Assembly (NCBI GenBank): GCA_964016885.1
Contig: OZ024742.1
Span: 229,710,001 to 229,774,000 of the forward strand
Length of the DNA stretch: 64,000 nucleotides
Direction of reading: 5' to 3'
DNA from: Eledone cirrhosa
Taxonomy: Eukaryota
How positions within the stretch are numbered: the first letter of the stretch is position 1; the number at the start of each line of letters is the position of its first letter. The position numbers and the translations under genes are program-made. The notes below the pieces were generated by a model. That model was not told the origin of the DNA. It searched no databases and worked only from the letters and a program-made list of their open reading frames with translations. Shown piece after piece: positions 4,713 to 59,795 of this stretch.

Positions 4713-5069
4713 TTCCAACTTTGTCTGATTTACTCGTTTTATTTACAATCCTTTAAAATTTATAATGGTATTATAATGAAATAGTATGATAGAATATTAA
4801 ATGTTAAGTGTTAATTGAACAAGTACTTAAATGCTTTCGCAATCTTCAGGTTCATAATGTGTGGTGACAGTCAAGTTTGCAATTTTCAACTGTCGAAAAT
4901 TGCAAACTTGACTGTCACCACACATTATGAACCTGAAGATTGCGAAAGCATGAAAGTACTTGTTCAATTAACACTTAGCATTTAATATTCTATCATACTA
5001 TTTCATTATAATACCATTATAAATTTTAAAGGATTGTAAATAAAACGAGTAAATCAGACAAAGTTGGAA
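4713..5069. repeat. Near-perfect palindrome, 175-bp arms, 7-nt loop
   Basis: 4713-4887 is the reverse complement of 4895-5069 with ~3 mismatches. Confidence 0.95.
4928..4966 (+). ncRNA. Minimal type I hammerhead-like motif
   Basis: UGAAC-CUGAAGA-UUGCGAAAGCAU-GAAA-GUAC-UU-GUUCA. Confidence 0.7.
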
Positions 5070-5867: not shown

Positions 5868-6110
5868 TTTCTTTTTCTTTTTCTTTTTCTTTTTCTCCTT
5901 CTCTCCCTTCCTTATCATAAATATTTAAATTTTCCACAGCGTCTAAAATAACGTTTTTTCAGCTCTTTAATATACATATCATTTGCATACTCATATTAAT
6001 AATTTTAAATATCTGACTGTTCTTCTCTCTTCCCTTCACTTTCCAGGGATAACTTGAACCGTTAAGGTATGTTATCCTTGGTCATGTCAAATATTTATAA
6101 AACATTTTGT

Positions 6111-6170
6111 ATTTTATCTGATGATAGCGTACCAAAATTGTTGGTACCCTTGAAATATATATAATAGAAT
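6111..6170 (+). ncRNA. Type I hammerhead ribozyme (second copy 13298-13356, minus strand)
   Basis: AUUUUAU-CUGAUGA-[GUACCAA/UUGGUAC stem]-GAAA-UAUAUA-UA-AUAGAAU. Confidence 0.75.
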
Positions 6171-6307
6171 AAATATGGTTTTATAAATATAGTTTCCATT
6201 TATTTAATATCTTTGAATACTTACTCCAGAAAAATACTGTCGAGTGCTCTGAATCAGTTGTAAACATATATATTTGTTGAATTTCCAACAAATTAAATAT
6301 CTCTTCT

Positions 6308-12490: not shown

Positions 12491-12564
12491 ATATATACGT
12501 TATTCCGGGTTGAATCGGAGGTAACCACAGTAAGTAAGGTACTCAAAACATTGCAGAGTATAAA

Positions 12565-12702
12565 AGTTTTAATATAGATGAGATTCTACAGGACTAGAAC
12601 TGTTTCATTCTTTAGAAATCATCAGGAATCTCATGAGATTCCTGATGATTTCTAAAGAATGAAACAGTTCTAGTCCTGTACAATCTCATCTATATTAAAA
12701 CT
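12565..12702. repeat. Spacer-less palindrome, 69-bp arms
   Basis: Centre tca|tga at 12633/12634; one mismatch. Confidence 0.95.
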
Positions 12703-12797
12703 ATATATATATATATATATATATATAAACAAGGTTTAGTAAATAATGAAAAAGTTTCAAAATAAATTTTTAAAAATTGACTTTACCTACTATAGTT

Positions 12798-12881
12798 ACC
12801 TTTACCGATCGGTTTCGAATCCCAAAAATAAAACGGAGACCATACGGCCTTCGTTGCAAAGAAAGATTCTCGTCAGAAGGT
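12798..12881 (-). ncRNA. Type I hammerhead ribozyme, canonical core
   Basis: ACCUU-CUGACGA-GAAUCUU..GGGAUUC-GAAA-CCGAUCGG-UA-AAGGU; stems I-III all pair and stem III is palindromic. Confidence 0.85.
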
Positions 12882-13221
12882 TCTTTTCATTCAAAGAATA
12901 TAAAATTCCTGAATTTAAATCACAAACTAGCGCTATCAAAAACTGTTCCTGGGATGAGAGTGGATGATGTAGAACAGGTTTATCAAGGGCCGTAGCAAAG
13001 ATAGAGGCAAAAGGAGGTAGGTCAAACTAGCCACCGCTATTGCTAGCAGCAGTCGGAATGACCCGGTTTGTTCTCAACGTTAGTGGAGGTAGTAGTAATA
13101 TGAAATACGTCCCTTCACGCACAAGGCGCCAAGGTACGCATGTATTGTCCAACCAAGTGCCAATGTGGTTCAATGGCGGGTTAATAAATTAACGAGCCAG
13201 AACAAATATAAACAAGGTTTA

Positions 13222-13255
<34 letters not shown>

Positions 13256-13297
13256 ATGATATTAATAAATGGAAACTATATTTATAAAACCATATTT

Positions 13298-13356
13298 ATT
13301 CTATTATATATATTTCAAGGGTACCAACACTTTGGTACGCCCTCATCAGATAAAAT
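13298..13356 (-). ncRNA. Type I hammerhead ribozyme, same family as 6111-6170
   Basis: AUUUUAU-CUGAUGA-GGGCGUACCAAAGUGUUGGUACCCUU-GAAA-UAUAUA-UA-AUAGAAU. Confidence 0.78.
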
Positions 13357-13840
13357 ACAAAGTTTGTTTTATAAATGTTGACATATCCAGGAACGCGATC
13401 TTAACAGTTCAAGTTTTTCCTGATAGTTTTTCTTGAATTACCAACAAATTAAATATCCCTTTGCTTATATATATAGAGAGAGAGAGAGTATGTGTGGGTT
13501 AGAGAGTTAGAGAGAAAGAGAGAGAGAGAGAGAAAGAGGGAGAGAGAGAGGGAGAGATGTGAGTACCGTGTTCAATCATGGCTAACCACAGTAAATAAGT
13601 TACTCAATACATTAGTAGAATGTATGCAACAAATTTAATATTGAAATGGCTTCTACAGGACTTGATCTGTTGCATTCGAAGGAAATCATCAGGATATATA
13701 TATATATATATATATATTTATAGAAATTTCGTATTTCTAAAGAAACACGGTATGTTTACAGAAAACATTTAGGAGGCCGTAGCTATACGAACACCGGGGT
13801 TAACGCCCTCTGGTGGTGCCCAGCAGAAGCAAGGAGGACA

Positions 13841-13884
13841 ACCGTCTATGCATTTCAGGCTTGATTGGCCTTGATCAGGACAGT
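13841..13884 (-). ncRNA. Hammerhead with G8C lesion in a probable inverted pseudo-LTR upstream of the Neptune-like element
   Basis: ACUGUC-CUGAUCA-AGGC(CAAUCAA)GCCU-GAAA-UGCA-UA-GACGGU. Confidence 0.7.
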
Positions 13885-14023
13885 CTCTCCAACAGCATGC
13901 AACTGCTGGACTTGAGGACAATCGAGAATATAGAGTTTTCTCATCTGTGTAAATGAGGTGATTAATCTCATTTGCAAATGAAGCTGCATAAGTTGGCTCA
14001 CTTATAATAGAATATCTCTCTCA

Positions 14024-14963
14024 CTTTCTCTCTCGACATCCTCATTAAGATTGATAACAAAAAATAGAAACAGACATATACCACAAGCCCACAGACTCCA
14101 AGCAATATCTTCCTTTCAACTCTTGCACCCTAGACACGTTAACATTAATATTCCCTACAACTTAGCCAAGAGAATCTGTACTATAGTCTCCAATAAAAAC
14201 ACCTGCTACTTACGGCTACAAGAACTAAAGGACACACTCATAGGCAGGGACTACCCTGCATCATTAATTGACAATGGAATCAAACGTGCCTTAAAACTCA
14301 GTACCCAGGACCTTAGACACCCTAAGGTAAATCAACCGAAACTAAAAGCTCTTCAATACATCTCCACACACAACCCCTCAACAATGAGGCCTTTGACACC
14401 ATCCTCCAGAACATCCCTGTGTTAAAAAAGGACCATAGAATGAACCAAATCCTACGAACACACGATATCATAAAGAGCAAAAGACAATCTAAGTCAATGA
14501 AAAACATCCTAACACATGCCAAATTACTGCCAACCACAACAACGAAACCCACAGTAAAAAAAATGCGATAGACCCAACGGTGGCATATGCATCAACCTAA
14601 TAGAGGGTTCGGAATTCTATTTCAAAGAAGGACAACGTTTTATAGTAAAACACAATTTCACATGCGCATCAGAAAATCTAATATTTGTATTTAACTTGCT
14701 CAGGTTGTCGAGAACAATACATAGGCCAGACCAAAAACAGCCTCCGCCAACGCATGACTGCCCATAGATCCCAAATTAAAATACGGGAATACAGGAAAAT
14801 ACCACTGAGTGAACACATTGATACCTGCGCCACCCAAAATCATCCCAACTTCAGAATCTTTCCCCTCTACAAATTTAAAGATAATGCCACCCACACCCGG
14901 CGCATCAACAAGGAATCTCACTTTATTAACAAATACGGACCCCGTCTAAACACTTCTCCCTAA
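14024..14963 (+). pseudogene. Penelope-like element, Neptune-like (RT C-terminus + GIY-YIG endonuclease), frameshifted and 5'-truncated
   Basis: LDILI..TDIYHKPTDSKQYL..HPRH..IPYNLAKRICTIVS; GIY-YIG region FTCASENL..LTCSGCREQYIGQT..LRQRM..H..E..IN..P.LN. Confidence 0.9.
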
Positions 14964-15436
14964 GACGAACCCACAACATACACACGTCAACATACAGACC
15001 TACATCAGCATACATCCTACATACATCTCTATCCACATATAAACACAATGACATACGTAAACACACATGTTCTATGGTGCAACACAAATATACACAAATT
15101 TGCATACCTTTTGATGTCTATAGATATAAACGTGCCGACACACACACATACATATACGCACACATGCATTGCACACTGATGGGCACACACATATTTGTAC
15201 ACAAGTATTTCAATACGGCAAGGCCTAATGGACTCCCCTTGCAGTGTGTACAATCTGGACACTCACACACACCTTGGTCTTATGCCAATACTATATATCA
15301 TTTCACACCTTCTATTATTAATGTTTTTGATGTTCTATGAGAGAATCGTTTTTGCTGAAAATATCGAATAATGTACACCATTTTTACCAGTATCACAAAA
15401 ATACTGGTCCACCCCCACACACACACACACATTCAT

Positions 15437-15477
<41 letters not shown>

Positions 15478-15646
15478 TACACACGCGTACATTAACATAC
15501 AAAGAGACATATACACACACAGACACACACACACTTCTCCGTATAAGACAAGAGCTGAAAAATATCTTTTGACATGTTAAAATATCCCCCACACACGTAC
15601 AGACACATTCCTACTGACCATTCCCTCTACCACGAATTACTCTGCT

Positions 15647-15678
<32 letters not shown>

Positions 15679-16243
15679 ACATACACACACACACACACAT
15701 ACACACACTTGTCTTAATAGGCATCTGAACTGTTGACCTGTCAGCAGGCAGCGTCGCACACACATCCCTGCTGACATTATCACAACAACGAACCTCTTTA
15801 CTACTACTACTACACACAAACACACACACATATTTGTCTTAAAAGACTTATTTTTCAGTGACTTCTCAATCAGCCGAGACAAACCTACATTTGGCGCAAA
15901 ATCAATTCTTAACATTCACATGACCTCTACTGACCAATCAAAATTGTTTTGACCACAAGAATTTTTTCATACATCTTGAGCCACTTTTTTTTACATAAAA
16001 CAGGTAGAATTTCCAAAACTAATCAGATTAGAGCAAACATGACGGGCGCTCTATCTCAAAATTATTTTTGAAAAGCATTAGAAATGCTCAACCGGTAAAA
16101 ACTTAAAACCAAAACTGAATACTAACCAATACTATTACTAATTTTTACTTATTCCTAATTAAATTATTTTTCACTGTGAACAATTTGTCAGCATTTTCTT
16201 TTCCTTTTACCAATATATCATAACTCGTGTGTTACACCTCTAT

Positions 16244-16316
<73 letters not shown>

Positions 16317-24690: not shown

Positions 24691-25010
24691 AAATATGAGC
24701 GGAACAAGTAAACATTAAACAATCTTTTAAATAAATTAAAATACGATTTAAATATTTACCTCTTCTAGTGCCATGACCGGACGGTTTCGCTTATCAAAAG
24801 ATTGGAAATTCAGAGAATTTCCAATGGAAAGATATAGCTCTTCAGATAGCGTTTCCAAATCTACTAAACATAAGTCCTGGAAATTCTCTGAATTTCCAGT
24901 CTTTTGATAAGCGAAACCGTACGGTCATGGCACTAGAAGAGGTAAATATTTAAATCGTATTTTAATTTATTTAAAAGATTGTTTAATGTTTAATTGTTCC
25001 GCTCATATTT
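24691..25010. repeat. Inverted repeat, 133-bp arms, 54-bp spacer
   Basis: 24691-24823 vs 24878-25010. Confidence 0.95.
24770..24850 (-). ncRNA. Type I hammerhead ribozyme (GUC site)
   Basis: GCUAU-CUGAAGA-GCU..long stem II..AGC-GAAA-CCGUCCGG-UC-AUGGC; a homolog at 49941-50019 shows compensatory changes. Confidence 0.85.
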
Positions 25011-25455: not shown

Positions 25456-25498
25456 ACGCTGTACTAGTTTCAAGCTTATTAGCTATCGTCAGCAACGT
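25456..25498 (-). ncRNA. Minimal type I hammerhead ribozyme
   Basis: ACGUUG-CUGACGA-UAGCUAAUAAGCUU-GAAA-CUAG-UA-CAGCGU. Confidence 0.85.
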
Positions 25499-59684: not shown

Positions 59685-59716
59685 AGATCAAAAGATGGTT
59701 AAAGGAGTTCCATATA

Positions 59717-59783
59717 TTTTATTATGCGCATTTCAAAAACAAACATCATCAAGCAATAATATTTGTGTTTTCATCAGATAAAA
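59717..59783 (-). ncRNA. Type I hammerhead ribozyme, canonical core
   Basis: UUUUAU-CUGAUGA-AAAC[12-bp hairpin]UUUU-GAAA-UGCGCA-UA-AUAAAA. Confidence 0.8.
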
Positions 59784-59795
59784 CTCACCTCCTAC

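Follow-up and report, generated by a model that had tools for sequence, protein, structure and literature searches.

A 483-nt hammerhead retrozyme in (TA)n tracts of Eledone cirrhosa with two paired start sites and a probable Penelope-type copying enzyme

The copy in the window and its hammerhead

The window is a stretch of 64,000 nucleotides from Eledone cirrhosa (GCA_964016885.1, contig OZ024742.1, positions 229,710,001 to 229,774,000 of the forward strand), and coordinates without a locus or contig name refer to it. It contains one copy of a 483-nt repeat unit, set between two TA tracts, with the following features.

12702..12727, left target tract, (TA)13; its final ATATA coincides with the site A start of the element
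12723..13205, minus strand, single complete 483-nt retrozyme monomer
12723..12730, plus strand, start site A, the inner one, at unit position 1; on the RNA it lies 80 nt 3' of the predicted cut; the site used by the window copy
12798..12881, minus strand, type I hammerhead (strict descriptor); predicted cut between 12803 and 12802 (GUA, after 12803)
13098..13105, plus strand, start site B (outer, unit position about 376); on the RNA, site A precedes it by 108 nt
13105..13141, minus strand, predicted three-segment hairpin adjoining site B
13206..13224, plus strand, opening 19 nt of a second monomer, a run-over beyond one full turn that is joined to the right tract via TA
13223..13253, right target tract, (TA)15

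The sequence ATATAAACAAGGTTTAGTA occurs exactly at 12723-12741 and again at 13206-13224, which gives a period of 483. The TA runs that the original prediction saw on both sides of the unit are there, (TA)13 at 12702-12727 on the left and (TA)15 at 13223-13253 on the right, and the 19-bp repeat overlaps them, its left-end ATATA and its right-end TA being common to repeat and tracts. The prediction took this repeat as the terminal repeat of a 483-bp unit; its exactness and its period stand, but its terminal status does not, because the same 19 nt recur at internal tandem junctions of other copies and the ends of copies vary. For the same reasons, a target-site duplication was rejected (the 19 nt are element sequence) and so was a mini-LTR (copies end at any unit position). 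The repeat is the start of the second unit of a 483-nt tandem monomer, and the family has no LTR. The window copy measures one turn plus about 14-19 nt and meets the right tract through TA, and it passes through site B, which is the insertion end in many other copies. It is an ordinary dead-end monomer with a single arm, and as it has one hammerhead, it could not by itself release unit-length RNA. The monomer has a GC content of 39% (189 of 483 bases are G or C) and no protein-coding frame, the longest stop-free frame having 74 codons; its RNA is probably the minus strand and its cDNA the plus strand. The sister family F2 has a predicted hairpin similar to the one beside site B but different in sequence, and this modelled structure is a candidate protein-binding element.

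The hammerhead predicted on the minus strand at 12798-12881, with three pairing stems, was recovered at exactly that position by a strict type I descriptor and is backed by covariation. It consists of a 5-bp stem I (ACCUU/AAGGU), the core CUGACGA, a 7-bp stem II, GAAA and a palindromic stem III, CCGAUCGG, that is, the canonical core and three stems of the type I hammerhead expected in a retrozyme. The descriptor matched 8 times in the window, whereas each of 50 block-shuffled versions gave 0-1 matches. Fourteen relatives were aligned, and pairing holds in 93.9% of the cells (100% in stem I, 86% in stem II), both sides change in 9 of 19 pairs, and slid controls pair at most 49%; these 14 motifs were picked with the same descriptor and their rows come from few related families, which makes the shuffle control lenient. 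Stem III is palindromic with three different centres (CCGAUCGG, CCGCGCGG and CCGUACGG). Rfam did not recognise the motif, whether at the gathering threshold or with E values up to 10, so the call rests on the descriptor and the covariation, and the isolated minimum-energy fold of the motif differs from the hammerhead fold (z -1.09). Five further strict type I hammerheads lie elsewhere in the window (4928-4966, 6110-6171, 24770-24850, 25456-25498 and 59716-59784), of which 6110-6171 resembles the family at 13297 and 24770-24850 is related to the family F3 described below.

The family in the genome and its two start sites

The genome (3.0 Gb) holds many near-identical copies of the 483-nt unit in tandem and inverted arrangement, mostly 96-100% identical to each other, and the family is young. 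The copy-number search suggested with the original prediction thus found a repeat spread genome-wide: the first 26 bases of the unit have at least 679 exact matches, a 25-mer from the hammerhead has at least 1153 (close subfamilies included), and TA-anchored starts number at least 260 at unit position 1 and at least 140 at position 376. The unit sequence was also present in contigs of two runs (of four) from one study, the kind of run not being on record. We fetched 130 loci, 72 of which were unique and complete, and 70 remained after the removal of L041 (the same place as L097) and L009 (a duplicate of L008); the old 89% copy L082 was excluded from variant counts. This sample is biased, as the first 30 loci were the best matches and most of the others were selected from contig C1 because they contained the exact word for site A or site B. 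The arrays have a period of 483 and reach 8.8 units, and tandem hammerhead units therefore exist within the family. More than half of the primed arms (57/110) are longer than one unit, the longest having 4270 nt, and the far ends of the 110 arms are scattered over the entire unit. No correlation was found between the ends or the lengths of the two arms of an insertion (mean circular distance 111 against about 121 expected; Spearman -0.10). A relative with a period of 485 forms a two-armed array at C1:149205210-149210771, with at least 10 plus 2 hammerhead units.

A TA run lies within 14 nt of 109 of the 110 primed arm starts, compared with 7.3% of random window positions. The original prediction had proposed a mobile hammerhead unit tied to (TA)n and had named an ordinary TSD of unique sequence, together with copies lying away from TA, as the observation that would speak against it; the arm starts agree with the proposal. 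Arms start at unit position 1 (site A) or at about 376 (site B), both of which open with ATAT and match the TA target, and the two sites are used in a paired manner. Among 71 loci, 40 had A and B, 21 had A only, 9 had B only, one was left unscored, and A+A or B+B did not occur; four of the single-site loci (L062, L078, L085 and L091) can be read by eye as A+B too, one of their ends being variant or very short. A genome listing gave 31 convergent A+B pairs among the 100 A and 53 B starts listed in the shared range, with no A+A pair among the 100 A starts listed and no B+B pair among the 100 B starts listed; if the sites were chosen independently, such all-mixed pairs would arise with a probability of 2e-11. 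These pairs overlap the fetched loci, and the two sets are not independent. F2, a related family with a 488-nt unit and about 75% identity, and F3, another related family of 477 nt, each have two starts about 100-115 nt apart (30 loci each, by eye), and their two-armed loci are mixed pairs in most cases, a few complex ones being unscored.

The Penelope connection and the copied template

A neighbour of the retrozyme copy belongs to a coding family.

14032..16248, plus strand, 5'-truncated and frameshifted Neptune-type Penelope element; long end in (TA)n, GIY-YIG at 14682-14963

Elsewhere in the genome, this family has many open frames of 784 codons with RT and GIY-YIG. The CxxxxCxxC linker preceding the nuclease points to the Neptune clade, an assignment made from the sequence by the description in PMC8557442. 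Its copies, too, terminate in (TA)n, at one of two ends, a short and a long one, that differ by about 30-35 nt; 14 of the 27 fetched loci have two outward ends, short plus long in 13 by script and in the 14th by eye. Since a paired short-plus-long rule is found in a coding Penelope family, a Penelope-type enzyme likely copies the 483-nt retrozyme as well. The retrozyme family has the Penelope layout, in which insertions are tandem and inverted and just one of the ends is tailed, and autonomous Penelope-like elements coexist with it, further Penelope families being present in the flanks; it has no open frame with RT and GIY-YIG of its own and is not itself an autonomous Penelope element. The offset of about 30-35 nt between the ends of the coding family is the known Penelope tail, which published descriptions place at a single end (PMC8557442, PMC3846280) and which was explained in vitro by two internal starts (PMC11167929); in the same in vitro work, Poseidon started at sites non-homologous to the cut DNA and used uncleaved RNA. 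The origin of tandem, inverted and tailed Penelope insertions is treated as an unresolved matter in PMC8557442, and the mobilisation of retrozymes by Penelope enzymes from circles is a published hypothesis (PMC7229834; 10.64898/2026.07.22.740005).

Several observations on these Penelope families stand beside this. The Neptune-type family (L143-L158) is young, with a 1.3-kb microsatellite-rich 3' region, and no strict hammerhead of its own was found in the family as examined; the outer start of F3 is similar to its long end (…UUCUUUUA…). Another GIY-YIG Penelope family, found upstream of L145 and in the flank of L092, has a two-armed insertion and a hammerhead-like motif in its terminal region. 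At L094:2436-3134 (C1 near 5.733 Mb), a site-B arm is fused directly to the 3' 380 nt of a Neptune-type element, which are 96-97% identical to young copies and occupy the position of the second arm. Two RNAs may have given one chimeric insertion here, or the arm may have landed in an older copy; as both ends at the joint are of the outer type, the case counts against the pairing rule if it was one event.

Sites A and B lie only 80 and 188 nt 3' of the cut, so that a cleaved linear monomer would give arms of just that length. The arms cross the cut site 144 times, and 7 ends fall at positions 78-84 against 2.0 expected (5 in a cruder recount with all B starts fixed at 376); so many crossings against so few stops indicate that the template was mostly continuous, and the small excess of ends hints that some templates were cleaved. 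Both arms of an insertion were likely copied from the same template, as they agree at the informative sites in 24 of 27 insertions, whereas pairs taken between different insertions do so in 129 of 688 cases, and 15 rare alleles were found on both arms of an insertion; two transcripts of one source locus could alternatively give such a shared haplotype. As to the passes within an insertion, 155 variants are fixed in all of them (mostly subfamily markers; 21 are rare), 9 are partial, that is, present in some passes only, and 144 occur in a single pass, the last amounting to 0.3% per base. Single-pass changes on the cDNA strand include 28 A>G against 5 T>C (p 0.0013, six such pairs having been tested), a bias that holds in either genomic orientation, and we infer that it is the mark of reverse transcription, with G placed opposite U at each turn. 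L020 has two variants in register across its arms, for which an oligomeric template or later gene conversion is needed, and in L026 the arms are unlike each other at 3 of 19 sites. The 9 partial cases, notably L020, L013 and L026, need oligomeric templates, two molecules or later conversion, which counts against a pure monomer circle. As regards A-to-I editing, no excess of that change was found among the rare insertion-fixed variants (2/21). RNA-strand A-to-G recurs across haplotypes at only two sites, unit 66 (window 12788, in a UAG context; 6 insertions) and unit 128 (window 12850; 5 insertions), a weak hint that these may be editing sites.

We consider it probable, at roughly 70%, that this is an animal non-LTR retrozyme pasted into (TA)n by a Penelope-like RT and endonuclease from continuous, mostly circular RNA. 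Multi-unit loci would be transcribed on the hammerhead strand, and the transcripts would be cut and then ligated into circles; because stem III is palindromic, the cutting is perhaps done by paired hammerheads. A Penelope complex, possibly a dimer, would break the (TA)n tract, one DNA end being primed at site A and the other at site B via 4-5 nt of AUAU/UAUA pairing, and each enzyme would then circle the template and halt at a variable point, after which the two cDNAs would be joined together or a single cDNA would be joined to the far TA end. At the window copy, site A would have been primed, one turn plus about 14-19 nt copied and the end joined via TA, and this copying past one turn would have left the 19-bp repeat. 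More tentatively, and at somewhat less than even odds, we speculate that an RT-endonuclease dimer sits on one RNA circle and performs rolling-circle copying from both break ends, one each from the inner and the outer site. If so, the tail of Penelope elements, their inverted arm and the tandem arrays of retrozymes would be explained in one step, and each insertion would record one RNA molecule, with the errors of the enzyme marked turn by turn.

The same Penelope machinery could instead have worked on an uncleaved linear multimer transcribed from long arrays, with no role for circles. Arrays of at least 9 units could have served as sources, Poseidon worked mainly on unprocessed RNA in vitro (PMC11167929), and the partial variant patterns in L003, L004, L013, L020 and L099 would suit such a template; nevertheless, fixed variants outnumber partial ones by 155 to 9 (most of the 155 being subfamily markers), there is no accumulation of ends at a single transcript start, and the coral, mussel and axolotl relatives accumulate as circles (PMC7229834). 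Repeated copying of linear arrays would also presumably only shorten them, and we regard the linear multimer as an unlikely template. It is much less likely still that the unit is the pseudo-LTR of an undiscovered autonomous Penelope element and that its copies are truncated pieces. The tail and the inverted layout do match Penelope pseudo-LTRs (PMC8557442, PMC3846280), to which many Xenopus retrozymes are homologous (10.64898/2026.07.22.740005), but up to 8.8 of our units stand in direct succession with no spacer between them, and no arm runs into a coding frame of the family's own. The complex copy L092 does adjoin a GIY-YIG piece, but this piece belongs to another family, and no DNA homology of the unit was found to the Penelope loci or pseudo-LTRs compared, which are a subset of the genome's Penelope families; descent from a pseudo-LTR is still compatible with this. 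Growth of the arrays after insertion, by unequal crossing-over as in satellites, has been proposed (10.64898/2026.07.22.740005), and variants common to adjacent units in L003, L004 and L099 fit occasional local duplication; as a general explanation it has very little in its favour, since the A>G mark tracks the strand of the element rather than that of the genome, and the arrays are short, dispersed, two-armed and of non-integer length. That a 483-bp unit bounded by a 19-bp mini-LTR or target-site duplication inserted repeatedly at one hot spot is hardly credible, because, for all the exactness of the repeat and the three strict hammerheads within 800 bp, the 19 nt are element sequence at tandem junctions (the at least 679 exact 26-mers), arm ends are distributed across the whole unit, and neighbouring hammerheads are also common beside other copies.

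Known systems and the neighbouring islands

On the sequence-level features tested, homology to a Penelope pseudo-LTR (a trait of part of the Xenopus families) excepted, the element fits the metazoan non-LTR retrozymes, with which it has in common a type I hammerhead, a non-coding low-GC tandem unit, forms from monomers to multimers, coexistence with Penelope elements and a short palindromic stem III as in dimer-cutting forms (PMC7229834; 10.64898/2026.07.22.740005). Its 483 nt exceed the 170-400 nt given in PMC7229834 and fall within the 51-972 bp of 10.64898/2026.07.22.740005. The accounts of retrozymes consulted do not describe (TA)n targeting, two fixed starts or two-armed inverted insertions; the 483-nt family has all three. 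The words "inverted" and "microsatellite" have 0 occurrences in the main text of PMC7229834, and the literature searched gave no account of retrozymes whose fixed starts are paired. "Hammerhead", "ribozyme" and "retrozyme" are absent from the main text of the Octopus vulgaris repeat annotation (PMC13282606). A plant LTR retrozyme or a TRIM-like mini-LTR element would have fixed terminal direct repeats, a type III hammerhead and a short target-site duplication, unlike the type I hammerhead and variable ends seen here. In L1 twin priming, both DNA ends prime on the element RNA and an inverted insertion results, the second site being variable and the arms non-overlapping; in the 483-nt family, by contrast, neither site varies and the overlap of the arms extends over several units.

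The Neptune and Naiad clades of Penelope share with this family partial tandems, an inverted truncated arm, microsatellite targets, a single-end tail and the lack of a visible target-site duplication (PMC8557442, PMC3846280). The differences are that the 483-nt element has no open frame, that the whole element is the repeat unit, and that its tail has 108 nt compared with the 30-40 nt described for those clades. For Poseidon of Anolis, two internal starts likewise define the tail in vitro, both DNA strands are cut and extended, and a dimer is predicted (PMC11167929). Its first start lies 85-92 nt past the hammerhead cut, compared with 80 nt in our family, and its starts are reported to have neither target homology nor strand preference, whereas ours both carry ATAT, which matches the TA target, and are strictly paired, one to each end. 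The 483-nt family thus offers hundreds of young insertions that follow a strict, countable rule, common to a coding Penelope family in the same genome, and its RNA with two mapped starts could be used directly in the in vitro system of PMC11167929. With a Penelope footprint in a retrozyme, an open mechanistic question becomes directly testable.

Around the 483-nt copy lie the other members of what the original prediction described as a chain of five different hammerhead islands.

12500..12700, two-armed inverted piece of another repeat family; strict type I hammerhead at 12578-12634 (minus strand)
13254..13470, minus strand, another dispersed family (3111 first-look candidates); strict hammerhead at 13297-13357
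13566..13692, minus strand, decayed relative (about 77%) of the 12500-12700 family; hammerhead core broken
13725..14012, minus strand, older dispersed family (2450 first-look candidates); hammerhead at 13840-13885 with one core change (CUGAUCA)

Three strict hammerheads and one with a changed core were confirmed in this chain, but the fifth island is a decayed relative of the first, so that there are four families and not five. The idea of a microsatellite hot spot fared similarly in part: TA tracts are a target common to the families, but the cluster is not clearly exceptional, as islands are frequent genome-wide. Hammerhead islands occur at 0.16-0.25 per kb beside other copies of the family compared with 0.125 per kb in the window, their density is slightly higher near the insertions of 483-nt copies, and 21 of 70 loci have another hammerhead island within 1 kb. 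One hot spot of repeated insertion at 12.5-14 kb is thus weakly supported. All five motifs of the chain (12578-13885) are on the minus strand, and a read-through RNA could possibly be cut into chimeric pieces of about 502 and 216 nt, which would be a route to new families. The 12500-12700 piece reads as a near-perfect palindrome centred near 12633, and weak Rfam microRNA matches there arise from the hairpin. The family at 13725-14012 has seven near-equal matches spaced about 60-120 kb apart at C1:143348332-143796243, which suggests a large segmental tandem duplication.
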